A stretch of 47,504 nt of DNA, from NCBI GenBank assembly GCA_009602735.1, contig WELA01000963.1, forward strand, positions 340,192 to 387,695, given 5' to 3'. A program made the position numbers and the translations under genes. This document shows, piece after piece, positions 10,258-47,504 of the stretch. Source of the stretch: Mesotaenium endlicherianum (taxonomy: Eukaryota). A model generated the notes under the pieces. It made no database searches. It was not told the DNA's origin and saw only the letters and a program-made list of their open reading frames with translations. Within the stretch, counting starts at the first letter, position 1; every line of letters starts with the position of its first letter.

Positions 10258-11174
10258 TGTAACGTTTTTGCTTTTCAAGAGGATCTTACCTTGCTATTCA
10301 AGGAATATTTAAATGAAGTGGAAAGAAAATTTATATACTTGTGCAAATTGACAAATCCTCGAGAAAGCGAAAATGAAAACTAACGTAGAATGTGTGCTTG
10401 TGAGAGTTGCACTCACAATGACTCTGCAGGTATTTATACTTGCACGACGTGAGGCACTGGAGTGCTTCGAGTCACCACCTAGGGCACTGGTTCATGTCAA
10501 CAAAAACAGGCGAAGGGGTACGACCCATTTTGGCTGAATGCTCGAAACGCGCCGTTTGGCCGTTTGGAGACCTTTCGACGGTTTTCAAAAAACCGTTTCG
10601 CGCCAAACGGGCGTTTTCGCGTCCTCGCGACTTTTCGAAAAGTCGCGACTGTTTGCGGAGTCGCGTACAAATGCTCTTCGTCATGAACCGGTAGTTATAA
10701 AAACTACTTCGCCAATCGGTTAGGTGTGAACGTTTCTAACGACAGGTCGCGGGTTCGAATCTGCTCGGATGCAAAGTCGCTTTGCATATTATGTGTCATT
10801 TGACTTTTACGACTGTTTGTTCGTATTAACGACTGGCCGTAAATCAAAAATCTGTGACTGTGCATTATCCGAAATAATGACAATCAAAATAACTTAATCA
10901 AACAATGACTAATTAAGTTATCGTCTCAAAATTAGTCAAAGTAACTTTATGAATAATTATGTCGTACTTTTGCGAAGTAGTCGAATTATGTTACGACGCT
11001 TTTTGCAATAGTATCTCGGTCGTTTCGCCAATCGACCGGGAATTGGCACACGCGTGTGGCGAACAATTCAATGTGATGCGATCATTTATCAAATAATGTA
11101 TGATAAATAACATAACGTATTTTAGGTAATCGGGAAAACGTCCCAAATACGCCTAAAAAGCTCAGACTGTTACA
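10258..11174 (-). repeat. 3' LTR of element A (917 bp)
   Basis: Starts TGTAAC and ends GTTACA. Its first ~665 bp closely match 17611-18278. Abuts the polypurine tract. Confidence 0.93.
10709..10773 (+). other. tRNA-like segment (A-box/B-box) inside the LTR of element A; second copy 18062-18126
   Basis: TCGCCAATCGG (A-box-like) lies 43 nt before GGTTCGAATCT (B-box-like), with a TTTCTAA anticodon-loop-like heptamer and a CGGATGCA end. Stems are imperfect, so it is not called as a tRNA gene. Confidence 0.45.
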
Positions 11175-12758: not shown

Positions 12759-13503
12759 TGTAAGGTCATAGGTTTATAAAGTGCATTTTTGAGTTTCATG
12801 AAAGTGTGTTTTGTTTGTATAATAGTATAAAGTGCATTTTTGTGGTCATTTTGATATAAAGTTCATTGAATTTGGTCAAGTATTGAGAGAGTTATGGATT
12901 TCCGAAAGTTTAATTAGTTTTGAGGTCGGTTGACGACTGTCCTTAATTGGCGGTGAGCGCGACCGTCGGATTGACCGACAGCGTCGAGCGATCTGGCCCG
13001 TTAGAATGAACTCGAACCTTCACGTAAGTTCGGCTGACGCGGAGTGCCGACTAGGTCGATTTACCTAGAAGTTTCGGTTTAGCCTAGCGCGTCTAAGATA
13101 GAGTATTCTAGTAATGTCGATGCATGTATGTGGATGTCAATTCGGCCCGACACGTCAGATTAGACTGATCTGGCTTACTCACGAATATTCTGGAAGGGAC
13201 GATTTGACGAACACTGAGGAAAATCCGTAGCTTCCTCCTAGAGAGGAGCACTTAGGCAGAAAATTATAAATAGGCATAACTTCTTTCTTTCTTATCAGTT
13301 TTCACTTCTGTAAATTTCTACGGGTTTGTAATGACCAGGCCTTTTATCCTACATCATTTGTGAGCAGTTTCTTGCTACTCAAAATGTTGAGTCTTATTTC
13401 TAAGCTTTGTTAGTGATATGCCGCTGCACTCTCTAGTATGATGGCAACTAGTTCCTTTCCTCGTGAGTCACTACGCTTCCACTAGGGCACTCTGCCCCTT
13501 TCA
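12759..13503 (+). mobile_element. Solo LTR of family B inserted in the pol of element A
   Basis: 745 bp TGTAAGG..CCCTTTCA flanked by a perfect 5-bp TSD GCTTG (12754-12758 and 13504-13508). Closely matches 24565-25306. Confidence 0.95.
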
Positions 13504-16500
13504 GCTTGAGTGTTCTTTCCTTTTATCCATACTGTCCATCGTTACGGCTACACCGTTCAAGCCAGTACCCTGAAGATCTAGGAAAAACGGATCTTTGAGA
13601 TAGCCCTCGTGAAATAGTTGATGCAGGTCAAATACTTCCGAGTTATGCATGCTATCCAAATCGGGTGTGCCCGCGTCATCATGCTGGTTGCGGTCAGATG
13701 TCTGGGGGGTTACAGCAGAATCAAGGATGGCCGCCCTCGAACCCTGACCATTTTGTTCTCGCAAGCTAGCAACAGTCCCCAACATCAAGTGGTGATGAGG
13801 AATTCGACTTAGAGGATCAGCAACATTGTTGCGGCCTGGGCGATATGCCCACTCAAAGTGGAATCGTTGCAAGAAGGCAGACCATCTCGTTTGTCTCCTC
13901 GATAGCGTTGGCTGAATTTGAAAAAAGGTATATGGGCAGTGGTCCGTAACCATTGTCAAACCCTTGCAGCCTTCCAAATAACATCGCCAAGTTTTCAAAG
14001 CGTATATCACTGCCCAGAGCTCCAACTCTGTCGTTGAGTAATTTTGTTCGGCAGTTGTCAGCTTTTGACTCTCAAAACTGATAGGCTTGTCTGCCTGCAG
14101 TTGAACAGCCCCTATTCCAACACCAGACGCATCGGCGACTACCTCGTAAGGAAAGTCGAGATTGGCTAATGAAAGAAGTGGCGTATTAGTGAATGCATAC
14201 TGAACGCGCTCAAACGCATGTTGCGTATTCTCATCCCAAATGAATGGTCTTATCTTTCCTTTGTCAGAGCAGTGAGTGGCGCGGCCATCACTGAATAACC
14301 TTGCATAAACTTACAAAAGTAGTTAGCAAACCCAAGGAATGAACGTACAGTATGTACATCTTTCGGGACAGGCCAGTCTGCTACGCACGCTATCTTGTCT
14401 GGGTCCGGGCGCACCCTTTTCGAATCCACTACATGTCCGAGGTACAAAAGTTCATCCTTTAAAAAGAACATTTCTTTTGCTTAGCATACAGCTGTTGCTC
14501 ACGAAGGATTTGCAACACCAACTTGAGGTGCTTGTAATGCTCGGCCCTGGTCTTTGAATAGACGAGGATATTGTCGAGGTAAACCTGGACAAATTTCCCC
14601 AAGTAAGGTCTAAACAAATCGTTTATCGTACTTTGGAATGTCGCTGGTGCATTGGTAAGTCCAAAACTTAGGACTTTGTATTGGAAGTGCCCAATAGGCG
14701 TACGAAGCGCTGTGTTGGGGACATCCTCTGGTGTGATTCGAATCTGATGATAGCCTTGGGCTAAATCAAGCGAGGAGAACACGCATGCCCCCTGCAGCGA
14801 ATCAAAAAAATCATCAATGCGAGGCAACGAATAGCGGTTCTTGTTCGTGATATTGTTCAACGCACGATAATCAATGCACCGTCTAAGCGTCCCATCTTTC
14901 TTTTGAACAGATAGGATGGGCGCCCCGAACAGAGAAGAGCTCGGCTTAATTGATCCTTTCTGAAGCAAGTCGGTAATTTGGTCCTTCATTTCAGTCATTT
15001 CCAACGGGCTTAGGCGATAAATTGGTCGCCAAGTTGAGAATCGTGAATGAGAGGGATTGTATGTCCAATACCTCTATCAGGCGGAAGCTCGGCTGGTATT
15101 TCACTTGGAAACACTGACTTGCACTATTGCAGAAGAGCAAAAAGTTCAGCTGTGAGTGTGTCCTCATGACCAGTAACGTCTAAAATCGGCTCTTTCGTAA
15201 AGAGCGTAGTGGAAGTTCTTGGGGAATCGGGTCTTAGTAATCCATAGAAAACATTTTGACTTTGCTTTGCCAAACGTCGAGCTTGCTTTATGGACAATAG
15301 AAGAGTCTTCGAAGGACTATCCAAGGCCATATCGGGCTTAAGGGACTGAAGAGTGATCTTCTTGGTCCCTTTGCGTACAATGCATGTCTTTTGACCGAAG
15401 TCAAGCAATGCACTTGTATGCGTAAGCCAATCGTTACCCAAAACTGCGTCAATTCCATGTGGCAATTCAGTTACGTAGAAATGTACACGCCCATGAAAGG
15501 ACTACACGCTGAGCGGTAATTTAATCGTTCTAAACATACAAGCTAACGAGCCATCGCCGAGGCGAAGGGTCTCGTCCTTGAGTATTGGAAGCAACTTCAT
15601 CCCTTGTGCAAAACGTGCACTAATGAAGCTCACTGATGCGCCTGAATCAATGACTGTAAAGCATGATTTGCCTGAAACTTTTGTTTCAAATGTCACACTT
15701 AACCCAAAAGAAGCATTATGCATCACTAGCAATGTCCTCGCCTTGAGAGGAATGTGGGAAATATGGAGGTCCTTTACCAAAATTCCATTTTGCATTGCCA
15801 TCCGCGTGGGAAACCGAGTTATCGGGTGAGAATGCGCGCGTCGATATGTAAATGCAGCAATATAAATTGGTGCACGACACTGGTGCATTTTTTGTAAGCG
15901 AGGATAAGTGTGCGTAACACTTGGCAAGGTTAGGATCATGCGGCTGAAAGTGCAAGAACATGGTATCATGGATGCACTCGAATTCCAAGAACTCAGGTAA
16001 GCTCAACACTTGCATGCAAATATATTTGTTTTGAAGTATATTTATATCGGGTATGCCAGAGTAAACAAGATTCTTTGGTGCGTGCGCACAAACACCTAGA
16101 GTTTCCTGCTCACTAAGTCGTGTTGTCAATAGCTCAGAAGGAGGCTTTGCGGCTATCTCCTGAGCTACTCTTTTACAGGCCCCTTGTCTTTCCCCTTGGG
16201 ATTGTTTCTCGAATCCTTTCTAGTAGGACATGCCAAGATCGTATGCCCATGTTTCTCACAGCTAAAACACAGCCCTTCTGCCATCATGCGATTGCGAGCT
16301 TCTGTGTTGTCTATCTTGCCTACCTTGGGAGGTGGACCATTGGATCTAGCACTATTACCCGCGCCATTGGGATAGTTCCTCATTGGAGCGGCATTATTAG
16401 AACTAGGACACGACAATGGAGGACGTGATGGACGAGCTGCCTGAAGTTTAGGCGCAGCGACCGACTCCTCCTGGGCTAAAATCTCGGTATAACAAATGAG

Positions 16501-17596
16501 ATCGGCAATGGCTGTCCATTCCAAACCGATGACTGGGTTTACGTTGAGACATTTAGCGTATTCCGCCTCGAGCCCCAAGCGAAAGAGGTGAATTTGCATC
16601 CCAGTATCGACTGGAACATCCACTATCTGGGCGACTAAGATACGAAACTTATTGACATAGGTTTCGACATTGCCTGTCTGCTTGAGTTGAAGCAACTTAT
16701 CACGAGCTAGCTTTGATGGATTGTGACGCCCAAAGGAATTGCGTAACTCAGTATTATTTTTTTGAAAGTCATCAGCCCCCTCTCAACCCATGCCATAACT
16801 GCGATGCGTGCCCCTTGAGAAAAGTGGAAGCCATCATGTCTTGGTTGGTAGGGGCCACTTTAGCTAACGCAAAGAAGATTTTGAGTTTTTTGAGAAAACG
16901 GCGTACGTCAGAACCTGGACCGCCCTGAAACTTTTCAGGCGGTGAAGGCTTGTACAAAGGCGTTGGTGCCGCGGCCTGCCCAAGGATGGCGGGCGAGATT
17001 GGCGGGTTGGCGTTGTCGCCGGCGGTCCCTGATGGGCCCGGCATCCCTTAGGCAGCCTGTAAGAAAGGACCAATCGAAGGGTGAGTGTCCATGGCAGCAA
17101 CAAAGCGAGTGACAAGGTCCGCCAACTCAGTATGAGTAACCTCAGCAACATTAACACGGTCTTCTGTACGACCAATGACATCGGACAAGGTGCTTACAGC
17201 CATTGTCATGGTTTGTCTGTCAGTTGTCAAGGCCGTAAAGCGTTGTAAAATTGTCTGCTGGAAAGTGCGCGGCGAAATTGGTTTGTTGGGCAGTCCTCAA
17301 GCATTGCCGGCGTTGACAACAGGAACGGTAAGAGCAGCAGCAGCGGCGGCAGCAGCGGCGGCAGTAGTAGCAACGGCGGCAACAGCAGCAACAGCAGCCT
17401 CGGCACCATTTTCGCCCTCCATATGGAAGCCGAGATAGCGCCAGAAGAGAGAGAAAAAATTTCCTGTCAAAATACGATAAGCGACCGTTGGGTCAGGGCA
17501 GGACTGGGATGAGTGACCTTCCCAATACAAAAAATTGCCCCAAAATATATTTTCCAACCACTAAAAAAAAACAAAATCCTTGGAGAAACCGAGATC

Positions 17597-17609
17597 GGCT
17601 CCGATACCA
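17597..17609 (-). promoter_or_regulatory. Primer-binding site (tRNA-iMet type) of element A
   Basis: Minus strand reads TGGTATCGGAGCC, 1 nt after the LTR end, matching the usual TGGTATCAGAGC with one mismatch. Confidence 0.9.
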
Positions 17610-17610
17610 A

Positions 17611-18278
17611 TGTAACATTTCTGCTTTTCAAGAGGATCTTACCTCACTATTCAAGGAATATTTAAATGAAGTGGAAAGAAAATCTATATACTTGTGCAAA
17701 TTGACAAATCCTCGAGAAAGCGAAAATGAAAACTAACGTAGAATGTGTGCTTGTGAGAGTTGCACTCACAATGACTCTGCAGGTATTTACACCTGCACGA
17801 CGTGAGGCACTGGAGTGCTTCAAGTCACCACCTAGGGCACTGGTTCATGTCAACAAAAACAGGCGAAGAGGTACAACCCGTTTCGGCTGAATGCTCGAAA
17901 TGCGCCGTTTGGCCGTTTGGAGATTTTTCGACGATTTCCGAAAAACCGTTTTGCGCCAAACGGGCGTTTTCGCGTTCTCGCAACTTTTTGAAAAGTCGTA
18001 ACTGTTTGCGGAGTCGCGTACACATGCTTTTTGTCATGAACCGATAGTTATAAAAACTACTTCGCCAATCGGTTAGGTGAGAACGTTTTAAACGACAGGT
18101 CGCGGGTTCGAATCTGTTCAGATGCAAAGTCGCTTTGCATATTATGTGTCGTTTGACTTTTACGTCTGTTTGTTTGTATTAACGACTGGTCGTAAATCCG
18201 AAATCTGTGATTGTGCATTATTTGAAATAATGGCAATCAAAATAACTTAATCAAACAATGATTGATTAAAGTTATCAT
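17611..18278 (-). repeat. 5' LTR of element A, interrupted at 18279
   Basis: Direct repeat of 10258-~10924. The remaining ~250 bp are not found in the window. Confidence 0.92.
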
Positions 18279-19639
18279 TGTCGTGACTAACAGTGTCGGA
18301 CCCCCTTGGCACGTGCGTCCTGGCACGTGAGGAATCAACCGGGTTGATCAACCCTTGCACATGTGTCGGTAACAGGCTGGTCGGGGGTTGACCATCCCCG
18401 GTCTGCCTGCACTGGCATCATACGGTGGGGCATTCCACACTAAATAGAAATCTTCAAAAAAGATATCTTATACTCAGTTTCCCTTACAAGAACAGAAGCG
18501 TCTTACTTCCACACAGGCTTTCGCCCAAGTTGAGGATTTACAGGATGAACACGTTTGTAGTTTGCGAAAATCACGTCTAAGCAGCTTAACAGGCAATGCC
18601 AGATACGAAGAAAATCGCCCTTCAAGTCTTTCGCTTAACTTACACAAGTTACAGCTCACAAAACTCTGAAATTGCACATCTATGCTGGTCTGGTCTAGCT
18701 CTTCACTCAACACCGCGCCTTAACAATTCTTCACTGCTTGGCTGGGCTCACTCAGTTCTTCACTGAGAGCTTTACTTGTTGATACTACTCTTGCTATCAG
18801 CAATTCAACGGTTGAGACTTCTGAGAACTTGGAAACTTACACAGCACTCACCATTTTAAGTGGCTTTCGCACTCTTGTGGTGTTCAACCCGAATCTTTGC
18901 TAATCTCCTAACAGATTCTATTTTGCAACTCTCTACCTTCTACCAGCGAGATCCCCTCTTTAGAACTCCTGAGGTCTAACCTTTCTATGATACACTTGAG
19001 AAGAGATCTTCTAGCGTCGGCAGAAGCGTGGCGTCTCAACTCTTCTGTGGCCTTGGAAACTCCTTCTCCTTCAGGCACCTTCTTCTCCTTTCCTTTTGTA
19101 CCTGTGTCTTCAGCTTTCTTGACAACGCCATACGAGCCAGAATGAGGCAGCTTCAGGCAGGGCTCGTGCCTTCACAGGCACCACACATTATACTCTCTCG
19201 AGAATGCCAGTGCTTAGTCACAGCACTTAGCTTGCATGCCGTCCTTACCTAGCAACCTTCAAACAGCTTCGAAGTTGTCATCCAGCATGCATGCATGCCT
19301 TGGGAATGTTGCGCGTGACTGCTTAGCCTTTCAGCTGGCAATCATGCCTATGTGGCTGGCGGCTGGCAGCATTTGAGATGAACGCTCAAGCCGTGCCTAG
19401 TCACTTGAGGGTCTTGGCCGAGGTGGCACGTGACGCCTCTGCAACATCCAAGCTGTACTTGGCTTAGGCAGCCAATTAATCCGCACCTTTCTTGGCACTT
19501 GTTGGGCTGGCCCATTGCTGGTTCCAGGCCCCTAGCCTTTCGGTTGACTACTTCATCCAAATTCCCACCCATCCCTGGGTGTGGGATTTGACGTGTCGTG
19601 ACCACTTTGACAGTAACGACGATTTTGACATAACTGCTG
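18279..19639 (-). mobile_element. LTR fragment of the DNMT-carrying family (family C), inserted in LTR A and itself interrupted by element B
   Basis: 18480-19590 is a diverged reverse complement of ~40590-41665 (e.g. CACTCAGTTCTTCACTGAGAGCTTTA vs TAAAGCTCTCAGTGAAGAACTGAGTG). The terminus TGTCGTGACT mirrors TGTCGCGACT at 40431. Confidence 0.85.
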
Positions 19640-20883
19640 TGTAAGGTCATAGGTATATAAAGGGCATTTTTATGTTTCATGAAAGTATTTTTTTGATTGT
19701 ATAGTAGTGTAGAGTGGATTTTTGTGGTCATTTTGATATGAAGTTCATCAAAATTGGTCAAGTATTGAGAGAGTAATGGATTTCCGAAGTTTAATTAATT
19801 TTGAAATCGGTTGACGATTGTCATTAATTGGCGGTGAGCGCGAACGTCGGATTGACCGACAGCGTCAAGCGATCAAGCCCGTTAGAATGAACTCGAACCT
19901 TCACGTAAGTTCGGCTGACGCGGAGTGCCGACTAGGTCGATTTACCTAGAAGTTTCGATTTAGCCTAGCGCGTCTAAGATAGAATATTCTAGTAATGTCG
20001 ATGCATGTATGTGGACGTCAATTCGGCCCGACACGTCAGATTAGACTGATCTGGCTTTCTCACAAATATTCTGGAGGAGAAGTCTACGCCCACTTTCAAC
20101 AAAATATGCGTGCGGAGGTGGAGAGAATGGTGCGAGTTGTTGTTGGGAACGCCACTTCGACAGGTTTGGCACCTGCACCTGTTGTACCACCTATTCATGT
20201 TAACCCAGTGGTGCAACCAGTTATTCCACCCGCATCGGGAGTGCGTGCTCCAAAGCCTGAAGTGTACACTGGGGAGCATGGATCGCCGCCTGTTCATCAA
20301 TGAATTTTTGGAGTGAGGAAGTTTATGGAGTATTCTGCGCTCACGCCCCACAAGCAAGTCGCCTTTGTGATTACTTTGCTGAAGAAGAGTGCTAGAGCTT
20401 GATATGAGCAACAGGAGCAGCTGTTTTGATATCTTGCTACTGTTGATCAGCTGTTTGAAGGCTTGAAGAGGAAATTTTAACCTATTGCACCCGAGGCTAC
20501 CGCTCGAAATCTATTGGTGCGCCTTCGTCAACGAGCAAGCGTTCAAGAGTATGTATCGCGCTTCAACGAGCTGGTGCTTCAATGTCCATCCATGCACGAG
20601 TCGGAGATGATGGACAAGTTCAAGAGGGGACTCAAGCCAACTGTGGCCAAGGAAGTGGCACTCAAGGACCCTACCAGTGTTGGAGAAATGATGGCATTGG
20701 CAACAAGGGTCGACGCTGTGGAATGTAGTCAGAGGCAGTGGGGTAGCCACAACTTTGGAGGATATCAACACTTTGGATCTCAAGCGCCAAGCACGAGTGT
20801 TCAAGGTCAGTACCTAAGGAATTGGGACTTGTTCAGTACCCGCGCAGGCAGCAGAATTTTAAGCCGAGAGGACCCTGCTATAA

Positions 20884-23800
20884 TTGTGGCGAGCTTGGAC
20901 ATTTGGCTCGAGACTGTCATATGAAGGCGAAGCAACCTCAACAACAGGAAAAAGGAGGACGCCAATAAGTCGTTCTGGGGTGTCTACTGGCGTGAAGAAG
21001 GAAACTCACAAGGAGGTTATTCTCTGGAGCATGTTGAGAAGCGAAAGACGAAAAGTTGACAAGCCTATCGTCGTGGAAGGAGTAGTCGACGGCAACAAGG
21101 CGAAGTGTACGGTTGACAATGGCGCAAGTGCAAATTTTGTGCGCGAGAAGTTGGTGAAAGAATGGCAAATCCCTGTGCAGAAGCATTATGAGCCTAAGGA
21201 GGCAATTTTGGCAAATGGGCAGAGACTCAAGTGTGGTGCACCTACGGAAGCTATTCACGTGGAAGTAGCGGGGCACCGGAGTAAGGAAGTTATGGAGCAG
21301 GCAGAGTTGGGTCACCATGAGGTGATATTGGGCCGACCATGGCTAAGGAAAGCCAACCCTCAAGTGCACTGGAGCACAGGACAAGTGAAAGTCCAAGGGC
21401 GTGATGGTCGAATGGAGACAGCAAAACAGGTGGAGGTAGATACGACCACAAGTAACTGTCTTTTGTCGAGCCTGCAAGTTAAGAAGCTATGCAGGGCGAA
21501 TCAGGTGAAGGAGATGTACCTTGTTTTGGTGGCCCTGGCCAGGTTATCAGATGGACCAAGCGTGAATCTTAACAGCCTGGGCAAATGTACATCGCAGGAG
21601 GAGCAAGTAGTGGTGTCTGATCCCCTTGCTCAGAAGGAGCAGAGCCCAATTGCTCAAGAGGAGAAGCCTGCTGAGATGCCTGCCCAAATTAAGGAGCTGT
21701 TGGAGGAGTTCAAGTGCGTGTTTCCTGAGGAGCTACCTGCAGGATTACCTCCACAGAGAGCTATGAAGCACAAGATTGAGTTGGAACCAGGGAGCAAGCC
21801 ACCAGTAAGACCCGCCTATTGTCAATCGTTTGCGGAGTTGGACGAGTTGAAGAAGCAGCTGACAAAGTTATTGGAGAAGGGATTCATCCGACCCAGCGAG
21901 TCTCCATTTGCAGCGCCAGTCTTATTTGTGAAGAAGAAGGATGGGACTATAAGGATGTGTGTCGACTACCGGGCACTCNCGACTACCGGCTCTCAACAAG
22001 GTCACCATCAAGAACAAGTACCCACTTTCACGAGTGGACGAGTTAATTGACAGGCTTGTCGGGGCGAAGTATTTTTCGAAGATCGATTTAAGAAGTGGCT
22101 ATCACCAGGTCCGGATTGTGGAAGGAGACGTTCAGAAGACTGCTTTCAGGACTCGCTATGGTTTATTTGAGTTTACAGTCATGCCTTTTGGGCTGACTAA
22201 TGCACCTGCTACATTCCTGGGACTCATGAATAGTATCTTCAGACCCTTCTTGGACCAGTTTGTGGTGGTATTTTTGGACGACATACTTATCTATTCGAAG
22301 ACCTTGGAAGAGCATGTGGAGCATTTGAGGAAGGTATTGGAGGTCTTGAGAGATCAAAAGTTATATGGGAAGATGAGCAAGTGCGACTTCTTTCTTAAGG
22401 AGGTCAAGTTTCTTGGGCACATAGTGGGAGCTGAAGGAGTCAAGGTGGAGCAGAAGAAGGTGCAAGCAGTCAGAGATTGGCCGGTGCCTGCTGATAATCA
22501 TCAATTCAGGAGTTTCCTCGGCATGGCGAATTATTATGGACGTTTCATTGAAGGATTTGCGAAGGTGCGTGCACCGCTCAAGGACATGTTAAAGAAGCAG
22601 GAGAAGTGGCTATGGGGTGACAAGGAGCAGCAAGCCTTTGAGAAGATTAAGGAGCTGTTGACACAGGCACCTGTGTTGGCAATTGCAAGTCTCGAGCTTT
22701 CTTTCACCATCATCACGGATGCATCAGATTTTGCAGTGGGAGCCATTCTTCTCCAAGACCAGGGTAAAGGATTGCAGCCTGTGGCATATGAGAGCAGGAA
22801 GTTGAGTCTTGCGGAGCAGAACTATGCAGCACACGAGCGGGAGATGTTGGCTATTATCCAGGCTTTGGCAATGTTATGTGGACGGCCGGAAGGTGTTCAT
22901 CAAGACCGACCACAAGAGCTTGGAAAAGTTCATGACGCAGCCAACGTTGACACTAGGACAAGCAAGGTGGATGGAGTTTCTGCATCAGTTCCACCACAAG
23001 ATTGAGTACTTACCTGGGAAGATCAACCCTGCAGACGCTTTATCCAGAAGGTGTGACCTTGCAGCCGTCTCAGTCATTAAGGAGAGTATGGACTTCCAGG
23101 AGAAGCTTCAGAGAGGTTCTGAGGAGGACCCAAGAGTTTGCTGATCGTGGAGCAGCTGAGTCCAACTCGAATATGCAGAAGAAGGACGGCATATGATATT
23201 ATGGTGAATCCAAGAGAGTGGTGGTACCTGACATCAAGGAGCTACGAGACTTACTACTTGCGGAGCATCATGACTGCTTATATGCCGGACACTTTGGAAG
23301 CGAGAAGACGGCAAGTGTGTTGAAGCGGGAGTACTATTGGAGAAATATGGACAAGGACATCGAGGAGTGGATCAGGAGTTGCGATGCGTGCAAGAGAAAC
23401 AAGACACCAAATCAAAAGAAGGGAGGTACATTGCAACCCCTGCCTAATCTAGAGTACCCTTGGGAGCAGATTGCTATGGACTTTATCACAATTTTACCAG
23501 TGAGTAGTCAAGGATACAATGCAGTATGGGTTGTATCAGATAGACTCAGCAAGGTGGCCCACTTCATTCCCATGAAGGAGACTTGTACGGCAGCAGATGT
23601 GGCACGGCTCTTCTTTGATCATATTTTCAGGCTACATGGGTTGCCGAAGGTGATTGTTTCAAATCGGGATCCAAGATTTACTAGCAACTTCTGGCGGTCC
23701 TTGTTTACTTTGATAGGGACCAAGTTGAGTATGAGCACTTCCTATTATCCTCAGACAGACGGGCAGAGTGAGAGGCTCAACAAAACTCTGCAAGAGGTGC

Positions 23801-24550
23801 TCAGGAGTTTCACAATGGAAGACCCTTCAGAATCGGACAAGAAGCTGCCAGGGTTGGAGTTTGCCTACAACAATAGCATGCAGGTATCGACCAAGCAGTC
23901 ACCATTTGCGATGGTTTATGGAAGAGGAGTATATCATCCAGGGAATATCTTGTTGGAGAAGGCCAAGGAGACTCAGGTTCCTACTACACAAGCGTTTATG
24001 AAGCAGATGGCCAACACTTCGGATATGGCGAAGACGTTTTTTTCGGAAGGCACAGGAAGAGCAGGTCAAGCATGCTAACAAGCACACGAGGGAAGTGCTA
24101 TTCCATGTGGGCGACAAAGTACTCTTGTCCACAGAGAACCTACCTTTCACAGGCAAAAGGAAACTGCGGGCACCGTTTACGGGTCCCTTTGTAGTGCTCA
24201 AGCAGGTGAATCCAGTGGCCTACAAGTTGGAACTTCCTTCAGTCTGGCGTATCCATGATGTGTTCCATGTCAGTTGTTTGCGGCCATACGTTGACCCAAA
24301 CGAAGGACATCCAGGACAACTACCTACACCGCCACCACCGGTCGAGATCGATGATGTATTGGAGTATGAAGTGGAGGCGATTGTCGGCGATCGACGAGTA
24401 AAGCGAGGTCAACGATTTGTCCAAGATTATCGGGTTAAGTGAAAGGGCTACCATGCGGACGACAATACTTGGGAGCCAGAGGCCAACTTGACTCATTGTA
24501 AGAGTAAGTTGAGACGTCATTTACAGAAAGAGTCTAGGACGACGCATCTT
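20884..24550 (+). pseudogene. pol (PR-RT-RH-INT-chromodomain) of element B, frameshifted
   Basis: ORF pieces 20884-22050, 21959-23005, 22809-23144, 23218-24078 and 24095-24442 tile a gypsy-order Pol. Confidence 0.92.
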
Positions 24551-24564
24551 GAGGAGGGGGATGA

Positions 24565-25306
24565 TGTAAGGTGATAGGTTTATAAAGTGCATTTTTGAGT
24601 TTCATGGAAGTATGTTTTGATTGTATAGTAGTGTAATATGCATTTTTGTGATCATTTTGATATAAAGTTCATCGAAATTGGTCAAGTATTGAGAGAGTTA
24701 TGGATTTCCGAAGTTTAATTAGTTTTGAGGTGGGTTGACGACTGTCCTTAATTTGCGGTGAGCGCGACCGTCGGATTGACCGACAGCGTCGAGCGATCTG
24801 GCCCGTTAGAATGAACTCGAACCTTCACATAAGTTCGGCTGACGCGGAGTGCCGACTAGGTCGATTTACTTAGAAGTTCCGGTTTAGCCTAGCGCGTCTA
24901 AGATAGAAAATTCTAGTAATCAATGCATGTATGTGGACGTCAATTTGGCCCGACATGTCAGATTAGACTGATCTGGCTTACTCACGAATATTTTGGTAGG
25001 GACGATTTGACGAACACTAAGAAAAATTCGTAGCTTCCTCCTAGGGAGGAGCACTTAGGCAGAAAATTATAAATAGGCTTAACTTCTTTGTTTCTTATCA
25101 GTTTTCACTTCTGTAAATTTCTACGGGTTCGTAATGATGAGGCCTTTCATCCTACATCATTTGTGAGCAGTTTCTTGTTAGTCAAAATGCCAAGTAATTT
25201 TCCTAAGCTTTGTTAGTGATATGCCGCTGCACTCTTTAGTGTGATCGCAACTAGTTCTTTTCGTCTTGAGTTACTACTCTTCCACTAGGGCACTCTGCCC
25301 CTGTCA
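24565..25306 (+). repeat. 3' LTR of element B (742 bp)
   Basis: TGTAAGG..CCCTGTCA, preceded by PPT GAGGAGGGGGATGA. Matches 12759-13503 and 19640-20075. Confidence 0.94.
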
Positions 25307-38300: not shown

Positions 38301-39606
38301 GATGTGGCGGCACCCGGTGTCAGGTCATAACTGGGCCAAGTGCAGGCGGGTGTGCGCCACAGGCAACTTCGCAGCCACGGCCCAGCCAGGTAACACGCGA
38401 GGTGGCGTGGTGCAGTCCCTGGGGGGAAATACTACTTGCGGAGTGCCAGCTGGCGCACAGGCGGAGCGGCCGTGCCCGGCACTCGAGGGACTGGGGTGTG
38501 CACTCAGGCTCCTCGACGTTTCATCGAGGGGTGCTTAAAGGGCTCAGGGTAAGGGTACGGGGGTTTTAATCTGTAGCATGGGGTTTAGGTGTACAAGCCT
38601 AGTGCGTACCAACTCCTTGAGCCATGTCAGGGGCCAAGTCGAGGTCCCAGAGTGCTGCTTGCTCTTTGCAGAGAGAGGCTCCTGTTGCCTCTCTCTCGAG
38701 GCTGAGGGGTTGAGCTCAGTTGAGCCTGAGCCTGCAGATGTGCACAACTTTCCCTCCTGCTCTTCCATCCCCCCAATGCTCCCTCCCTCCTCTCGCCCTC
38801 GCTCTGTCCGTCTCCTTCCTCTATGTCCCACGCTCCCTCTCCTTCCTCTCCGCCCCTCTCGAGAGAACTATGGTGTACACTCAACATGTGCATGGGGTGA
38901 TGTGGCAGCTTCGTGCAAGCAGAGATTGTCTCCCGACGATGGACTGCCGGCCCTTTATCCATCTGCCTACTATCCAGCCAGGCTTGTCCCCCACGTCTCA
39001 CTACAAGTCAGCCTTAAGCTCCATTTCTTGTTCTGGACCAAAGTCCAAAAGGTGCCAAATCGCATTCAAAGAGGAACTTCTGGTGCCCCAACAACTCTCT
39101 CCAGCTTCTCTGTGCCCCCAGGTTCACCAGCTGTAACTTGCAGCTCTGATGCCTGATACCCCTTATCTAATTCCTTCTTGTGCCAGAGTAGAATTCATTA
39201 GGTGATGCAAGAAGTAAAGAGGCTTGCGGAAGAAAATAGAGCGTTGGAGCGTGAACTTTGTGCACGCCCCCGGAGAAGGGCCGATTACAGGAGGAAGAGG
39301 AGCACATACAGCTGTGAAGCATTTCTTGAGGGAGAGTTCACTGGCTGGCGTAACGTTTACATAGCCAAACCGCCGAGTCCCGGCAGCACTCCCGTCAACA
39401 GCTGACGCGTTTGCCTGTGGCTGAAGCTTGCTGGGAACAAGCTCAACGCTGTGCACTTCACCAAATGATGCAAACCTTGCCTTGAGCTCTTTCTCTGTTA
39501 CATCTGAAGGGAGGCCGCCTACATAGAGACGAGTTGTTAAAGAAGCAGGTGGCTCTAGGGCAGGGGACAAGGGGACTAGAGAGTGATCAGGAGTTGAAGC
39601 GTCCAT
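31461..39606 (-). CDS. ROS3: RRM-domain protein of the ROS3 (REPRESSOR OF SILENCING 3)/nucleolar protein 8 family, ~1,380 aa
   Basis: In-phase exons 39606-39310, 38275-37964, 36919-35671 (alternative donor 35659), 34615-34477, 33600-31461. Motifs RLYVGGLP..RRFGYV, YNGCKWRGGRLRIEKA, GKHKYSFQ, LRFDP and C-terminal CPFMR..EEEW are those I recognise from plant ROS3/NOL8. The middle is long, acidic and low complexity. Orthology was not tested. Confidence 0.85.
35123..35353. repeat. (AG)n microsatellite spanning an assembly gap
   Basis: Pure AG repeat flanking an N run in a ROS3-like intron. Confidence 0.95.
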
Positions 39607-40219
39607 CGCTTTTCGTGGGCGTGCTTTTTGAGAGGATGATCACATTTATTATGTTTTTCACTCGCTAGAAGCATGGAGATTACTTCAAAAACTTGGTATA
39701 ATCAATAGCTAGGCACAATCACCAGAAGTCCTCCACATGTTCCGTGCGTATTCGAAGCGGCGCATATAGTGGACGAGTGAGTGACACTTTGCAACGGACG
39801 ATAATACATTCACGCAATGCATGGCCACTACAACGGAAAAGCATGGTTGTCCGCACTGCATGCTCTCCAAGTACTTGCTACTTGCTCATTTACTCTTCCT
39901 TTTACCACACGTCGTTAAGTGCTTCGTTCTCACAGCTAGAGAGAGGGACATGGCCAGACAAGGCGGTAAAAAGACGAGCTATATCTGACACCCTGTGCGC
40001 TATATATATAGCATTGTACGACGGCACTCGAATCCGTCTTCGTCGCGACTTCCTCTGCAACTACAGTCTCCTTCTAGTGAGCTTACACCAGTGAAACTTC
40101 GGACCAGCCATAGACTTGATTTGACTTGAGCGTACCCGACGCTTATAAAGAAGGGCACAGACAGCATCTGACGAATTCGTGCGCGATCTTGAAACACAGT
40201 TGCTGTCCAGCCCATGTAC

Positions 40220-40430
40220 GGGAAAGTCAGCGTTGACTGACTGACTGGACTAATGATGTGGACAAGTCAGCATTGAAAGTCAAAGACCAAGTCACATAAA
40301 AGGGTGACTGTGACGTGTCAAAACCAACACTTAGTAATGGGTGGGGTTTGACAGCCAGCACCAGGACAAACGGTCCACGCCAGCACCTGCAAGGTCGAGG
40401 AAGCTTACCCAGCAACTAGCTTAGCAATTG
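40220..40430 (+). mobile_element. Older fragment resembling the start of the family C LTR
   Basis: GAAAGTCAGCGTTGACT..AGTCAGC..GTCAAAGACCA..ATGGGTGGGGTTTGACAG parallels GAAAGTCAACGTTGACT..AGTCAGC..GTCAAGACCA..ATGGGGGAGGTTTTGACAAG at 40495-40626. Confidence 0.55.
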
Positions 40431-41778
40431 TGTCGCGACTATTATCCGTTTGATGGTGTCGCACGCGAAGCGCAAGCTACGGCCACCTAGTGCTGAAAGT
40501 CAACGTTGACTCACCGACCACTTGACTGATCACATCGCAGTCAGCGGTTATGGCGGCGTCAAGACCACTGGCAAGGGGTCAATGTCAGTGTGCCCCACAC
40601 CCAGAGATGGGGGAGGTTTTGACAAGACAGCCGCGAGGCTAGGAGCTGGGGATCAGCAATGAGCCGCCCAGCAAGTACCAGGTCAGGTACTGTGTGACTG
40701 GCAGATTAAGCCAGGTCATGGCTGCAATGCCAAGATAGGTTACGGCCGCCCGGTTGGGAAAACTTGAGCAAGTGGCATTTGCTTGCACGCCGCTCAGGAG
40801 TTCTTCGCCATGAGCCAATTAGGCGTGACTGCCAGCTGAGAAGCTAAGCAGCCACGCGCGACAGTCACAAGGTGTGCATGCATGCTGAATGACTACGAGT
40901 TTGAGTTGAGCATGGCTAGGCAGAGGCGACATGCAGCTAAGTTGTGTGACTAAGCACGGCATTCTCGAAAGATGATGCTGTGTGGTGCCTGCGAAAGGCA
41001 CGAATCTTGCCTGAGACATGTCATTCACTCTCACGCACCTTTGCCAGAAGCAGAAGGAAAGAGAAGAAGGGCGCAAAGAGGAAGAAGGAGTTTCCAAGGC
41101 CATTGGAAGGCCAAAGCCCCACGCTTCTGACAACGCTGAAGATTCTTCTGTGTATCATAGATAAGTTAGGATTGTAGGAGTTCCCAAGAGGGAATCTCAC
41201 GGTTGAAGAAGGAGAACTGCAGAATAGAATCTGCTAGGAGATTAGCACAGAGTCAGCCGAACGCCACAAGTGTGTGTGTGAAGCAGCCTTAAAATAGTGA
41301 GTTGTGTATTGATTTCCAAGTTCTAAAAAGTCGCATTCGCATCTCGAAGAGAGAGAGTAGTATTGACAAATAAAGCTCTCAGTGAAGAACTGAGTGAGCC
41401 CAGCCTGGCAGTGAAGAGCTGTTAAGGCGCGGTGTTAAGTGAAGAGCTTGACCCAGGCCGGCATAGACGTAGTTTCAGAGTTTTGTAAGCTGACTTGTGG
41501 AAGTTAAGCGAAAGCCTGAAGGGCGATTTTCTCTGAATCTAACGTTGCATGTCAAGCTGCTTAGAGTGTGATTTCTGCAAACTACAATTTGCTCACTTGT
41601 GAACCCAAGAACCTTAAGGCATAAAGCCTATGTGGAAGTAAGAGACTTCTGTCCTACTTCTGAGAACTTCAGTTCTGTGGTTCAGGTGAATAGAAATTCC
41701 CAAGCAAATTGGGGATTGAGGCCTGTGAGGGCTGCCGGTGGTCAACCTGGAAGGGGACCCGGAGAAATTCAACTGTAC

Positions 41779-44146
41779 ATGCAGTTGAGGAGTGGAAGAC
41801 TCTACTACCCTGTGGAGCGTGCGGAAGGTTCTGATTCAAGCCAGAGTCCACGAGAAAGTGAGACATCTGAGCACACAGATAACCTGTGGAGTGAGCAACC
41901 GTCGAGAGACGAGTCACGCCATACTGCCACGAACGGTGAGAATCCGTATAACGTGCGAGCTTTTGTACCCAATTTGGGCAGAGAGCACGACGTGTGGGAT
42001 AAAGATAGTGAGTCGTGGTCACCACTCGAAATGACTGGTGATGATAAGGATGAAAATCCTAAGTTCAAGCTGTCTACAAAGTGTTTTAGTGGACGAACCA
42101 GTGGAAATAGTCTCATTTTCGAAGAGTTTGATGAGATCTATTGGGCTGACTTCTTTGAGAAAATCCGAAAGGATTCTTCTTACACTCAGTCAGTCGCTTT
42201 TATAAGCTTGGTTTAGTACTTGGACAAGGATGCCTTGTTGCTGTATCGCCAATTTCGGAAGGATGAGAACCTTACCCAGGAATGGGCGTTTGACGAGCAA
42301 AAGAAGACGAGAGATTTGAAAATCCAGAAAGAGGCTGCGAAAGCCCGCCTGTCCGCTTCGTCATCAGGAAGAGCGATACCTGCTGCACCTGTTGAGAGCG
42401 TAGACTTAGCTGCACTAACACAAGAATTAACAGATGCCATGAAGCATCTCACCGAGGGTCAGCAGCGAGCGGCTACTCGAGATGATGATGCTGGATCTGT
42501 CGCAGAATTGCGTTAAGTGTGTGCAGAATTGTCTGAAAAGATTGCTAATGCTCAGGAACGAGTAACACGCAGAGCTGCACCTTTTACAGGGCAGCATGGT
42601 GATAGTGTCACCACGTAAGCAAGCCATGCGCAAGCGTTGGCTAGTTGCCGTAGGGATATGGAGGCTGGGGATGACCAGTTAGACTCTGAGCACTGTCTGC
42701 GTCGTTTCTTTAAGTTGCTTGAAGCAACATTCCCAGAGGATCGCAGTCTTAAAGTGCACCGCTATGTGCATTTTGTCCGTCAGAAGAACGAGACAGTGAT
42801 GGAGGTCAAATCCAGATTGGTAGACCTTGCCAAGAAGGCAGGAATCTATGAGCCTAGGATTGTGGCTGACAAATTCTTATTGTGTCTGGGTAAAGATACA
42901 GATCGGGAGGTCAGGCCGCACCTATCTGCGAAACGCGGAATCGACTGGAACATCGACGAGGCTGCTGAAATAGCACGCAATGTCGAGGAAGGTAAAGTCT
43001 GGTACAAGGAGGCTTCCAGGACGCTTATGGCTCCTGAGAGAAGGGAGGAATCCTTTCAGCCCAAGGCCAATAGCTCTAATTTTCAGTTTAAGAAAAAGAG
43101 CGGGTCTTTCAATAGGTTTGCTAAGCACGCCAACACTGTTGAGACAACAGAGGGCTGTTGGAACTGCGGGAAATCAGGACATCAGAAGAGAGATTATCCG
43201 TACCCGGATGCTAAGCAATTGTCTGCTAGCAAGGCGCAGGTATGCGCACATTGCAGTAAAAAGGGACACTCAGAAGATGAGTGTTGGTCCAAGAACCCAA
43301 ATCTGAAACCACCATGGGCTAATGCTGCCACGAAAGAGGCGGATAAGGGTAAGAAACGGGAGAGAGATAACTCTGGTAACCGGAAGGGTAACCAGAAGTA
43401 TGATGCTATGAGTGCAGAGAGTGCAGAGTTGAAAGCTCAATTTGCAAGACTAAATGTGCCTACTGTCTATTATGATGCAGATGTGGCCGAAAAGACCGTC
43501 TGCAAAGGCGAGAAGCTGACGTCTGAGAAGGCCGTGGCTGCAACGGCTGCGGAGCGCGCAGATCATGACCGTTTGGTTCCAAGGAATGCTGGGAAGCTTC
43601 CTCAGACCTTTCGGATCACTCTCGATGAGAACGAGATTGCGCAGCTACGACAAGCCAAGCCTGGGCCACGCAAGACATTTAGTTTTTCACTGGAAAAGCT
43701 GAAGGCTCTGGTGGAACACCGGATTCAGCACATTCCTTGTCTTTCACTTGCTGATCTGCGTCTTACATATCCTTTCACGATTGAGGAAGCCGGACAGCAG
43801 CTGGACCTAGCTGAGGAAGGCGCAAACAGCGCTTCGCTGCCTACTAATTTCAACACTGTGAGAGTGCAGAACAGGGATAGACGTTTAAGAACTGGGCCGC
43901 TCCCAATATCCTTTTGGACATTGGCGCACAGCCAGTAATCTTGGGAAAGCTAGCTGTGAAAGCTCTGGGATTGACGGCAAGGGACCTGAAAGAAAGTCCT
44001 TTCCAGTTGACTGCATCTGGGCAAATTTCAAAGTCTTGTGGAATCACCCGCAAGCCTGTGGAAATCACACTAAACTTGGGGAAACCTGAGGAAGCCAACA
44101 CAATGAAGCAAGGGGCTAGCAGCCAGCCCCGACACAGGCAAGCAAG
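41779..44146 (+). pseudogene. gag plus N-terminal half of the aspartic protease of element C (disrupted)
   Basis: One frame from 41779 (MQLRSGR) to 43938 with in-frame stops at 42214, 42514 and 42616. RQKNETV gag motif; knuckles CWNCGKSGHQKRDY and CAHCSKKGHSEDEC. Protease NILLDIGAQPVILG lies in the -1 frame from ~43881. Confidence 0.85.
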
Positions 44147-47100
44147 GTGACAGAGGCAGAAAACTATGATGTTCTATTGGGGATAGAAGCTCTGATTCCC
44201 CTGGGTATGGTCATCCACCTGCGGAAGCAGAGGGTGACTTACCAGTCGACAGATCGGCAGCCGACAGGAAAAATTCCTGTAAAAATGGTTTGCTCCGGAG
44301 AAGCAAACTACAGACTGCTAGACTGCTATGTGAATGACCAGTATCCAGACCATTATGACCTCATCATGCAACGCGAAGAGAAGATCTACACCAGCATCAA
44401 CATGCCAACTCCCTTGGTTTGGCAACCTTGGATTATGGAGCAACTAGAAGCTGTGAGTAACAGGGACCGTGGCCCGCAAGAGCTGCTGCCAGTTCCTTAT
44501 CCAGTTAAGACTGCTGCCAATTTGATGCCTGGAGTAGACCCATTGCCGCAAGGCATTGTGAGGATGGAAGATCCTTTTTGCAGGAGAGGAGTAGTAGTGC
44601 TGGAAGCCGGACTTGGTACTGGAACCATCGCACTGATTCAGCGAGGTATCCAAGTATCCAAAGTGCTGTATGTGGACAATGATGAGAATGTTTCTACAGC
44701 ATTTGAGGAGGTCATGAGTCAGATGCGGCAAATGTACCATTTCAAGGCATTGGTGCCCACTAGTGTGGTGCGTCTTGCTGGAGGAAACATTCTCGATGTG
44801 AAGTCTGAGGACCTGTATGGTTACAGGATTGACTGGATTTTTGCGGGATTCCCTTGTCAACCTTTTTCGCAAGCTGGGAACAGGAGGGGATTCAATAACC
44901 CGCGAGCACAACACTGGGGAAGGATGGTGAAGATCATCAGTATGCTGCGGGAACGCCAGCATCTCTACCCACCAGTGTTTGTGATTGAGAATGTACATCC
45001 AGGGATGGATTACAACCAGATGAAGCCAGGAGATCCATGGCTGGTCTTCGACTCCACCCTAGGTCATCATGTGTTGATCAACGACGCCAGGCACGGAGGA
45101 CTCTCACACCGGGCCAGACTATTTTGGACCAACGGCATGTCCATTGAAATCCTGAGGGAGATGGAGGAGATTACGCGGCGCACGCCAACGGCAGTATCTG
45201 TGGGAGAAGCACTGATGGTGGAAACCAAGCCAGTGATCAGGAGGGATTCCTACCCACAGTACGTCGTCAACGAGCCAAGCCGGCCAAGGGTGGTGCTGCC
45301 CACCTTCACAACATACCCAGGATCACGCGCTTTCGTGAATGGAGGACCAGGAATGGTCAAAGATGTGCACGACAGAGAAGCTCAGTGGAGAGAGCCGACA
45401 GCTGAAGAGAAGGGAAGGTGCCTGGGGGTACCCAACTCCATTGCACAAGAGAATGTTGCAATGGTGGGACAGGACAGCGCTAAGAAGATATTCGGCAATA
45501 TGATTGGGCATCACTCCATGACATGGTTGGTAGAGACGATTATTACTTGGCAACAGATGACGTTCTCTGACAAGCCTATGCCCAGGCCGAGGCCGGTAAC
45601 GATTGGAGTCCATGTGGTGCCAACCTCTGATCAGAGAGCTATTAAAGAAGCGTATCAGCGACAAAAAGAATATGGTATTGAAAGAGACGCAGCTGAGGCT
45701 GACCAAGATGAAACACTCAGAGAAACCAGAGTGGTGGAGCTGACTAGGTGTCAAGACTTATTGACGCGAATTGACAATCGGATGGCGACTCTACACGACC
45801 CTCTGGAAAGAGAGCTGCGGAGGCTACGAGAAGACGTAACCATGGAAGACCAGGCAACTGGTGCAGCAAACCCTTTGGTGAGCGCTGCAGTAACACAGGA
45901 GGTCCCAGCATCTGCAGATCGCTCCAGCCAAGTATTTGGGAGGATGCCGGAATGGGAAAAATATACCAGTTCTGAGTTACGAAACATGGCCCCAGACCAA
46001 GTCTTCGGGAGCCCATCCCCAGACGCGGTAACATCAAGATATGAAGAACGCCAGTGCAATATTGGCGAATGGGCCGAAGAATGCAGTCAAAATTTAGGAA
46101 ATTCTGGAGGGTCTGGAAAGACCATTTGCCTGGAGGTGATTTTTGAAGAACACAAGAAGGAGACGGCCAAGAGATTCCCCGCCACACTTGCTCTGATGAG
46201 CCCAGGGCCAGAGGCCAAAGGGCAACCACAAGACACAGTTGGCAGCACAGCTGAGTCGATCACCAGGCAAATCATGGCGCAGTTGCTGGAAGCAGACGCC
46301 CCTCGACTCAAGGAAGAGAAAGTGGCGAAAGCAGCTCTCGCTCTACCGTCAGCCATCATCAACATGGCGAGGCTCAACACAGGAGGGGATGAAGAATTAC
46401 CGCCTCCTGGAACAGAGAAGTCGGAGGAGGAAGAGGATGCAGAGATGCAAGGCCTCTCGGAGTTGGAGTCACCATCACTCAACAATGAAGGGGACATTAG
46501 GGAAGAAATTCCACGTTTTCCCACGCCAGAGTTGGATCTGCTTCACTTACAGGAGCTGAGGGCAGACGACTGGGTGGCTGACCACCTGATGGGGCCAAGC
46601 CCGGCAGACCTTTATGAAGAATTAAGGTCGCCAACATCCAGTTCTCCTTCTGCCAGTCTTCCAGTGGCAGAACCCAAGTCAACCGCAAAACCGCCGCAAC
46701 GGCAGGAGGTGACTGCCAGCACTGCTAAAGTGGAGACAGCACAAGGAAAGCCCAAAAGTCGTGCAAGCAGACCAAGGAAGGTGGCCCGTGAGGGTAACGC
46801 ATCTTTTAGGAGGATGCTAAAGCGATATTTCAAGCATAAGGGGAAGGCTCAGAGAGAGGGCGTTCCGCGAGGAACCACAGCCCCACCTCCTCCGCCTCTG
46901 CGGGATATTCTGCAGAGAGAGGGAGAGGACGGTTTGGTTCGCAGGGCAATGGCATTGGGCATTAGTATGCCGCCAGGCATGAACACGCCCTTGTTGCAAC
47001 TATCAGATCTTAGGATACAGAGGTTGGAGGAGCCTGCTCTCATGATACCTGCAATCCCAGGATGGGAACTGATGGATCTGAGAAACACCATCAGCCGCTT

Positions 47101-47504
47101 GACCGCAGCAGATGATGCCTTTCTCGAACAACTAGCGGCATCTCAAAGGCCGCTAACATTGGCGCAGGCATGGATGGTCACACCACCCGCAAGGGAGGAG
47201 TATGGCACGACCGTCGCCCGCATGGCTATTATTGAGCGAGAATGGGGCTGGGCGATCAGCCCTAGGTTAGATCCCGCAGGTTTTCCAATGGCAAACCAAC
47301 CTCGGCCACGTGAAGAAGGAGGAACCGGGACCAGTTGGACTGCAGTCGACGAGGAAATGTTTTTGAGGCAGCCCATCCGGAGGCGCCTGACATACCCCTT
47401 ACCGCAGGAGAGGCGACGCGTCATTGGGAAAGGTAAAAAGCCTAAGAAACAGGCTGCCAAACTTATGGCAACGGAGGAGCAAGCTGCAAAGCCTGCTACC
47501 CCAC
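44147..47504 (+). CDS. Open frame of >1,100 codons: protease C-terminal half, DNMT3/DRM-like cytosine-5 methyltransferase (~44590-45540), then an unknown ~650-aa region; incomplete at the 3' end
   Basis: Manual translation finds no stop from 44147 to the window end. Motifs in order: VVVLEAGLGTG (I), VLYVDND (II), GNILDV (III), DWIFAGFPCQPFSQAG (IV, PCQ 44852-44860), FVIENV (VI, ENV 44987-44995), HRARLFWTN (VIII, 45107-45133), EPTAEEKGRCLGVP (IX), KKIFGNMI (X, 45482-45505). Confidence 0.9.
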   Translation, partial: MTEAENYDVLLGIEALIPLGMVIHLRKQRVTYQSTDRQPTGKIPVKMVCSGEANYRLLDCYVNDQYPDHYDLIMQREEKIYTSINMPTPLVWQPWIMEQLEAVSNRDRGPQELLPVPYPVKTAANLMPGVDPLPQGIVRMEDPFCRRGVVVLEAGLGTGTIALIQRGIQVSKVLYVDNDENVSTAFEEVMSQMRQMYHFKALVPTSVVRLAGGNILDVKSEDLYGYRIDWIFAGFPCQPFSQAGNRRGFNNPRAQHWGRMVKIISMLRERQHLYPPVFVIENVHPGMDYNQMKPGDPWLVFDSTLGHHVLINDARHGGLSHRARLFWTNGMSIEILREMEEITRRTPTAVSVGEALMVETKPVIRRDSYPQYVVNEPSRPRVVLPTFTTYPGSRAFVNGGPGMVKDVHDREAQWREPTAEEKGRCLGVPNSIAQENVAMVGQDSAKKIFGNMIGHHSMTWLVETIITWQQMTFSDKPMPRPRPVTIGVHVVPTSDQRAIKEAYQRQKEYGIERDAAEADQDETLRETRVVELTRCQDLLTRIDNRMATLHDPLERELRRLREDVTMEDQATGAANPLVSAAVTQEVPASADRSSQVFGRMPEWEKYTSSELRNMAPDQVFGSPSPDAVTSRYEERQCNIGEWAEECSQNLGNSGGSGKTICLEVIFEEHKKETAKRFPATLALMSPGPEAKGQPQDTVGSTAESITRQIMAQLLEADAPRLKEEKVAKAALALPSAIINMARLNTGGDEELPPPGTEKSEEEEDAEMQGLSELESPSLNNEGDIREEIPRFPTPELDLLHLQELRADDWVADHLMGPSPADLYEELRSPTSSSPSASLPVAEPKSTAKPPQRQEVTASTAKVETAQGKPKSRASRPRKVAREGNASFRRMLKRYFKHKGKAQREGVPRGTTAPPPPPLRDILQREGEDGLVRRAMALGISMPPGMNTPLLQLSDLRIQRLEEPALMIPAIPGWELMDLRNTISRLTAADDAFLEQLAASQRPLTLAQAWMVTPPAREEYGTTVARMAIIEREWGWAISPRLDPAGFPMANQPRPREEGGTGTSWTAVDEEMFLRQPIRRRLTYPLPQERRRVIGKGKKPKKQAAKLMATEEQAAKPATP

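Follow-up and report, generated by a model that had tools for sequence, protein, structure and literature searches.

The window analysed here is a stretch of 47,504 nucleotides of the Mesotaenium endlicherianum contig WELA01000963.1, in which pieces of host genes alternate with remains of retroelements. The host genes are represented at 35-5791(-) (GcpE/IspG, split by introns), 27079-29486(+) (a CRAL-TRIO protein) and 37925-39639(-) (an RRM protein). An intron-split GcpE/IspG gene agrees with a plastid-bearing eukaryote; the atlas rows obtained for a host exon are a mixture of Arthropoda and Streptophyta. Two decayed Ty3 elements that carry no methyltransferase are located at 10257-18276(-) and 19638-25307(+); their terminal repeats are 93% and 91% alike, respectively, and inside the first element a solitary repeat belonging to the second family occupies 12757-13504. 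A remnant of a tyrosine recombinase at 8793-9298(-) (Phage_integrase, E 0.014) possibly stems from a DIRS-type element. The 5' end of the element described in this report faces the RRM exon in head-to-head orientation at a distance of approximately 0.7 kb, and the 3' end of the element lies beyond the window.

At its 5' end the element has a terminal-repeat-like segment (40300..41655, +, ends approximate), which was called from contig depth and a blastn copy, without fixed TG..CA ends or a primer site. Positions 40594-41655 match 18489-19585(-) at 72% over 1116 columns (72-75% identity by blastn), as expected if the segment is a terminal repeat. This second, more diverged copy has no coding part and sits between two unrelated Ty3 elements. 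The segment further contains an inner direct repeat (40222-40359 / 40495-40631, 63%). In sequencing run X1, which may be the source sample, 6362 contigs align to 39500-47504. Their summed depth, which does not equal copy number, rises from 75 in the flank to 53,000-132,000 at 40301-41635 and amounts to 45,000-70,000 in gag, 25,000-34,000 in the methyltransferase (DNMT) and 12,000-32,000 in the following tail. Every bin from 40301 to the end of the window is thus far deeper than the flank, which suggests hundreds of element copies, with the methyltransferase as a regular part of the repeat family. Two runs that bear the labels of other organisms, X8 and X11, have coverage in 27 of 30 bins. The polyA run X23 (6% sampled) gave 42 reads, mostly from the 5' repeat, with depth in just one of five DNMT bins, and no RNA run is among those listed in the search for sequencing runs with the element.

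The 5' segment is followed by gag (41779..43938, +) with two CCHC-like zinc knuckles and stop codons at 42214, 42514 and 42616. The Pfam zf-CCHC match stays under the cut-off (E 0.0022); our own CCHC profile matches at 43156-43200 (E 7e-6), and the second knuckle was identified by reading the translation. Next comes an aspartic protease (43890..44290, +), divided between two frames near 44120-44147 and altered in its active-site motif. Its Asp_protease_2 match is again under the Pfam cut-off (E 0.013), and our own protease profile matches 43905-44099 with E 5.5e-9. For both gag and protease, the first-ranking relatives are proteins in which a methyltransferase follows the protease or precedes the reverse transcriptase (RT), referred to below as layout A. 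Among 195 proteins compared by phmmer, Closterium P0026 is the best for gag (E 2.9e-13); P0004 (5e-10) is the best for the protease, with Klebsormidium nitens P0032 at 1e-7, and the back half of the protease matches Closterium P0035 (E 3e-5).

The back half of the protease lies in an open frame at 44120-47503(+) that comprises 1128 codons without a stop, a length with a chance probability of about 7e-24 at the base composition of the window, and continues past the window end. The sequence-only reading had recognized in this frame, after gag and protease, a cytosine methyltransferase, and had named a profile comparison with PF00145 as its check. The enzyme is real: the domain at approximately 44564-45540(+) matches PF00145 with E 1.2e-14 (54.9 bits, Pfam cut-off 22), and a family profile matches 44582-45532 with E 3.7e-65. 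The interval first assigned to it, 44147..45540, does contain the methyltransferase; its beginning, 44147-44290, still belongs to the protease, of which it forms the second half, and a linker of about 90 codons separates the two. From the back half of the protease through the methyltransferase there is a single, intronless frame. The catalytic motifs follow in canonical, unpermuted order: GFPCQ (Cys codon 44855), ENV (Glu 44987) and HRARLFWTN (45107-45133), which includes both arginines of RxR (Arg 45110 and Arg 45116). The AlphaFold model of the domain has a pLDDT of 91.2. Over 133 aligned domains, the catalytic Cys is kept in 99%, the Glu in 100% and the two Arg in 99% and 98%.

The window copy is dead: it has three stops in gag, two frame changes, an altered protease site and a shortened motif I. 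Gag, the front half of the protease, and its back half together with the methyltransferase lie in three separate frames, and relatives such as P0003, P0016, P0026 and P0032 have all of them in one protein. The protease active-site motif differs from the form found in 11 of the 13 relatives checked, the other two giving no pattern match. Compared with 22 of the 23 relatives shown, motif I, which binds SAM, lacks two residues (the remaining relative, P0141, is truncated there). Two Asp are also replaced; across the 133 aligned domains, conservation of these residues is 98% and 86%. At both the protease motif and motif I, the sequence of the window is not the one seen in contigs of other copies. 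In run X11 a contig reads differently at motif I, and the shortening is therefore likely damage of this copy and not a property of the family. The family need not be dead although the window copy is.

Which kind of C5 methyltransferase the domain represents was addressed at the level of sequence and of predicted fold. The window protein alone, searched against PDB sequences, has M.HaeIII as its best match (1.4e-5) and no DNMT3 chain at E 1. Profiles built from the window and its relatives rank DNMT3A first (4.6e-23), and so does a profile of mostly layout-A and unassigned rows (4.8e-25). After DNMT3A, the same profiles place DRM and HhaI at 1e-10 to 1e-14 (HhaI 2e-10 and 5e-13), and DNMT1 is not among the profile matches listed. 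Foldseek with the domain model returned DNMT3 chains at all of ranks 1-14. Fold Z scores (VIA) are 25.6 for DNMT3B (275 residues aligned, rmsd 2.9), 24.7 for DNMT3A, 24.1 for M.MpeI, 21.1 for HhaI and 18.7 for DNMT1. The proposed DNMT3-like nature of the enzyme is supported by these comparisons, with a modest margin in the modelled fold. An atlas search placed it among DNA_methylase clusters at 0.79, which we treat as a lead only.

A phmmer search of 1.84 billion representatives gave 697 matches at E 0.001, the best at 2.6e-31, with identities of 25-39%; among the matches listed, identity to the window enzyme reaches at most 35% over full length and 39% over a short match. Word-based searches that started from the window protein alone retrieved no homologs. 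The best 150 of the 697 matches were classed by means of profiles cut from Pfam coordinates of 29 relatives. Retroelement domains occur in the same protein in 96 of them: 18 have layout A, and 78 have layout B, in which the methyltransferase follows RT/RNase H or precedes the integrase and a PHD finger is mostly terminal. The other 54 show the methyltransferase alone. The enzyme is accordingly borne by retroelements and placed after the protease, with gag and protease of the window matching layout-A polyproteins. Layout A is complete, in the Ty3 order protease-DNMT-RT-RNase H-integrase, in P0016, P0160, P0196 and locus L003. Layout B has the order RT-RNase H-DNMT-integrase-PHD finger in P0055, P0133, P0011 and 75 more of the best 150.

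Eight of 30 proteins looked up carry a species name. Those of layout A are K. nitens GAQ93235.1, five Closterium proteins and one of Mesostigma, hence all from streptophyte algae; the sole species-named layout-B protein is the pol of Scenedesmus sp. PABB004. The domains of GAQ93235.1 (CCHC 295-314, protease 594-693, DNMT 822-1148) stand in the same order as in the window. The Closterium proteins show the order gag-protease-DNMT and the Mesostigma protein protease-DNMT; a further profile search found four more Closterium proteins among 4435 candidates. The possibility raised in the sequence-only reading, that gag-protease-DNMT is a distinct architecture, is not supported, K. nitens GAQ93235.1 being already CCHC-protease-DNMT. 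Only four of 80 metagenome loci (L001-L004) carry retroelement domains, and an IMG/VR scan with P0003 gave no locus. One of the four, L003:10607-15670, combines layout A with the terminal PHD finger typical of layout B and so connects both layouts. Another, L004:367-3063, is a distant Ty3-like element with RT, a weak C5 methyltransferase match (2.5e-14) and integrase; its RT forms a long branch apart from layouts A and B, possibly a separate capture.

Beyond the methyltransferase, the open frame encodes a charged, helical or disordered tail of about 655-657 codons (45541..47504, +) with no known domain. It gave no match to Pfam at E 0.05-0.1, to PDB sequences at E 1 or to relatives, and profiles of RT, RNase H, integrase and PHD finger found no match in it, in six frames, up to the end of the window. 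Its model has a pLDDT of 46.8 and is too poor for use. A coding-like periodicity of G persists through the tail, the six variants listed at 47025-47127 fall on second codon positions where no other frame is open, and by its X1 depth the tail belongs to the repeat. Layout-A relatives (8 proteins, 3 loci) have 59-236 codons between the methyltransferase and the beginning of RT, as against some 657 codons without RT in the window. P0003 has a charged tail of 482 residues after its methyltransferase and ends without RT; the two tails show no similarity. Seven relatives (P0032 of K. nitens, P0132, P0122, P0167, P0138, P0089 and P0143) end exactly 12 residues past the DNMT domain, which suggests that a stop naturally follows gag-protease-DNMT and that RT occupies another frame or is translated by read-through. 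Because RT, RNase H and integrase are absent inside the window, the Ty3 class and the autonomy of the element are inferred from its relatives.

In an unrooted IQ-TREE phylogeny of 61 domains, layout B is separated from layout A, the unassigned rows and the window (99/97), and the window pairs with P0003 (93/85) on long branches. FastTree with 133 domains likewise puts the window among layout A. The RT tree groups layout B (97/95) and eight of nine layout-A rows (97/83); this mirrors the DNMT split and suggests long joint descent. When rooted on bacterial-type outgroups, the tree has the window as the first branch outside A and B (95/89; LG, 29 rows), as has a mixture-model tree of 22 rows (87/78). 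Both rooted trees carry long-branch warnings for the window and the outgroup and nest layout B within layout A; the outgroups are in part metagenome loci without retroelement domains, and host DNMT3 sequences are absent from the trees. AU tests do not reject the grouping of the window with layout B (p 0.108) or with P0003 (p-AU 0.084). A profile covering the region C-terminal to motif VIII, made from 16 relatives with the window excluded, matches the window with E 3e-24 over 126 of 131 positions, and bacterial enzymes with 0.008 at best. It had been suggested that sharing domain order and clade with the described Klebsormidium elements would speak against the novelty of the element: the order is the same, the clade is the same in the unrooted tree (99/97), and in the rooted ones the window branches first, outside A and B. 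We read layouts A and B and the window as one family, in which the window would be, as far as alignments and trees indicate, a divergent and perhaps basal member.

Several other origins of the locus deserve consideration. That it is a one-off chimera, a misassembly or a retrocopy of a host DNMT3 is almost certainly wrong: frame changes do flank the protease, and no single contig spans the whole stretch, but the X1 depth stays far above the flank from 40301 to the end, X8 and X11 cover 27 of 30 bins, the same domain order is found in many other genomes, and the same group of retroelement polyproteins is matched by gag, protease and methyltransferase alike. A second option, that a related Ty3 lineage acquired a DNMT3-like gene independently at the same place, would agree with the position of the window as first branch next to the bacterial outgroups, with the low identity among the matches listed (at most 35% full-length, 39% over a short match) and with a catalytic loop resembling that of bacterial enzymes. 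It is nevertheless quite improbable, given that the family-specific C-terminal part is common to the window and its relatives (E 3e-24), that gag and protease match the same elements as the methyltransferase, and that the rooted position combines a long-branch warning for window and outgroup with a tree lacking host DNMT3, pairing with P0003 being retained at p-AU 0.084. A somewhat better but still unlikely alternative is a non-autonomous or rearranged sub-lineage, made of gag-protease-DNMT and an extended charged tail, its RT being absent or encoded in a distant frame of its own; a partner would provide RT and integrase for its mobilization, and the element would supply the methyltransferase. 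The 657 codons without RT, the comparable RT-free tail of P0003, its nearest row in the tree, and the seven relatives that stop 12 residues past the methyltransferase speak for such a sub-lineage, the last of these indicating that the family does include first frames free of RT. Against it, the tails of the window and P0003 are dissimilar and their pairing (93/85, unstarred) joins long branches, spacer lengths vary widely in these polyproteins, and the frame is still open at the window end.

We return to the reading of the element as a member of one methyltransferase-bearing family and to the possible role of its enzyme. The Ty3 polyprotein is packed into the particle and cut there by the protease. 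In intact copies, the polyprotein would carry the methyltransferase into the particle, where the protease would free it, and the freed enzyme would sit beside the new cDNA. It could then write 5mC, probably at CG, on the cDNA or the fresh insertion, and the methylated copy might arrive marked like host DNA or already damped. We regard the chances that the enzyme of intact copies methylates the cDNA of its own element as about even; the CG context is proposed by analogy with SymbioDIRS-Dnmt3, for which de novo methylation of CG in yeast is described in the available part of PMC5890265. The window copy is unlikely to methylate itself, since its gag, protease and SAM motif are all damaged. CpG observed/expected is 0.61 in the element and 0.47 in its protease-DNMT part, as compared with 1.02 and 0.71 in the two neighbouring DNMT-less Ty3 elements and 0.57 and 0.63 in the host flanks; the element is below these neighbours, but not below the flanks. 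Of 589 differences, 40 were listed, and 9 of the 20 T/A-versus-C/G transitions among these 40 fall at CG (background 32%, p 0.15). CpG depletion and transition context together give no clear signal of self-methylation. A different role, in which the domain of intact copies binds DNA or acts on the host, for example by methylating host targets or by damping the element to the benefit of the host, appears doubtful to us. The K. nitens enzyme was without activity in yeast, and its authors list such alternatives (both in the accessible text of PMC5890265); the CpG signal, too, does not go beyond host level. On the other side, the preservation of the catalytic Cys, Glu and both Arg over 133 domains argues for catalysis, and the position in the polyprotein puts the enzyme together with the cDNA.

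Altogether, we consider it probable that the locus is a decayed member of an abundant retrotransposon family, likely Ty3/Gypsy, with a gag-protease-DNMT3-like polyprotein, that this family likely belongs, as a divergent lineage, to the streptophyte Gypsy-Dnmt3 elements, and that the enzyme of intact copies would likely methylate the cDNA of its own element. Membership in the streptophyte Gypsy-Dnmt3 family, taken separately, we hold with good confidence. A bolder scenario, offered as speculation that we think has little chance of being correct as a whole, would make the window the deepest known branch of a single ancient DNMT3 capture by green-plant Ty3 elements, with high copy number and RT lost or displaced behind a new 650-residue module; the captured gene would later have been relocated downstream of RNase H in an extensive radiation of chlorophyte elements, apparently not yet described, whose integrase ends in a PHD finger. 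As a dead copy, the window contributes a divergent member and no new principle. DNMT-bearing Gypsy elements have been described from few copies in one alga; with a family as abundant as that of the window, Ka/Ks, methylome and cDNA tests could draw on substantial numbers. Moreover, the homologs suggest that the capture extends beyond Klebsormidium, with Mesostigma, Klebsormidium and Closterium in layout A and one chlorophyte in layout B. For the group of this chlorophyte, a transcriptome survey reports no host DNMT3 (PMC9998398, in the portion available). We found no paper on the Closterium or Mesostigma members and none with the layout RNase H-DNMT-integrase-PHD in a literature search that mostly excludes subscription papers, and cited trees or supplements may contain them. 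PMC12344493 restates already known cases, and the accessible parts of PMC11244446 and 10.1101/2021.11.30.470311 hold nothing on these elements.

Among cellular enzymes, the catalytic domains of animal DNMT3A/B and plant DRM2 are the best profile and fold matches and have the HRAR-FW-N motif in common with the window enzyme, at 16-18% identity in fold alignments. The window enzyme differs from them in that no PWWP, ADD or UBA is seen and its target-recognition part is longer and family-specific; it is not permuted, whereas DRM is. Two further types of DNMT-bearing retrotransposons were compared. SymbioDIRS-Dnmt3 of Symbiodinium also has a DNMT3-type domain in Pol; these dinoflagellate DIRS elements use a tyrosine recombinase and go back to an independent capture, as stated in the available part of PMC5890265. 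The window element, in contrast, has an aspartic protease and its relatives carry a DDE (rve) integrase, on which grounds the SymbioDIRS type was rejected. To our knowledge, DIRS elements have no aspartic protease. EpiLTRs of Cymbomonas and Euglena resemble the window element as LTR retrotransposons with a cytosine methyltransferase, in the former case in a green alga. Their DNMT is sister to DNMT4 and, in Cymbomonas, located at the 3' end of pol together with DAM and a chromodomain; the same source, as far as its text is available, lists the streptophyte Gypsy-DNMT3 elements as known and EpiLTR as distinct from them (10.64898/2026.05.21.726589). An EpiLTR identity was rejected, the window enzyme being DNMT3-like and directly following the protease; neither DAM nor a chromodomain occurs among the Pfam matches of the 29 relatives.

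The closest known system is KnitGypsy-Dnmt3 of K. nitens, of which we take GAQ93235.1 to be one element. In both it and the window element, the Gypsy-type polyprotein includes a DNMT3-like domain that is unpermuted and free of introns, and the order CCHC-protease-DNMT is shared, with a window protease match of 1e-7. According to the accessible text of PMC5890265, its DNMT is part of Pol and shares a reading frame with RT and RNase H (authors' reply), its repeats are DIRS-like, and few copies exist in K. nitens; the negative yeast result for its enzyme is considered inconclusive by the authors, and the DNMT3B control was also without signal. The window element differs by the low identity of its domain (approximately 25%), by the far higher copy depth of its family as against these few copies, and by its 655-codon tail and decayed state. 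The layout is therefore not new, Klebsormidium elements of this kind having been described earlier, and the window element is likely a divergent addition to them.
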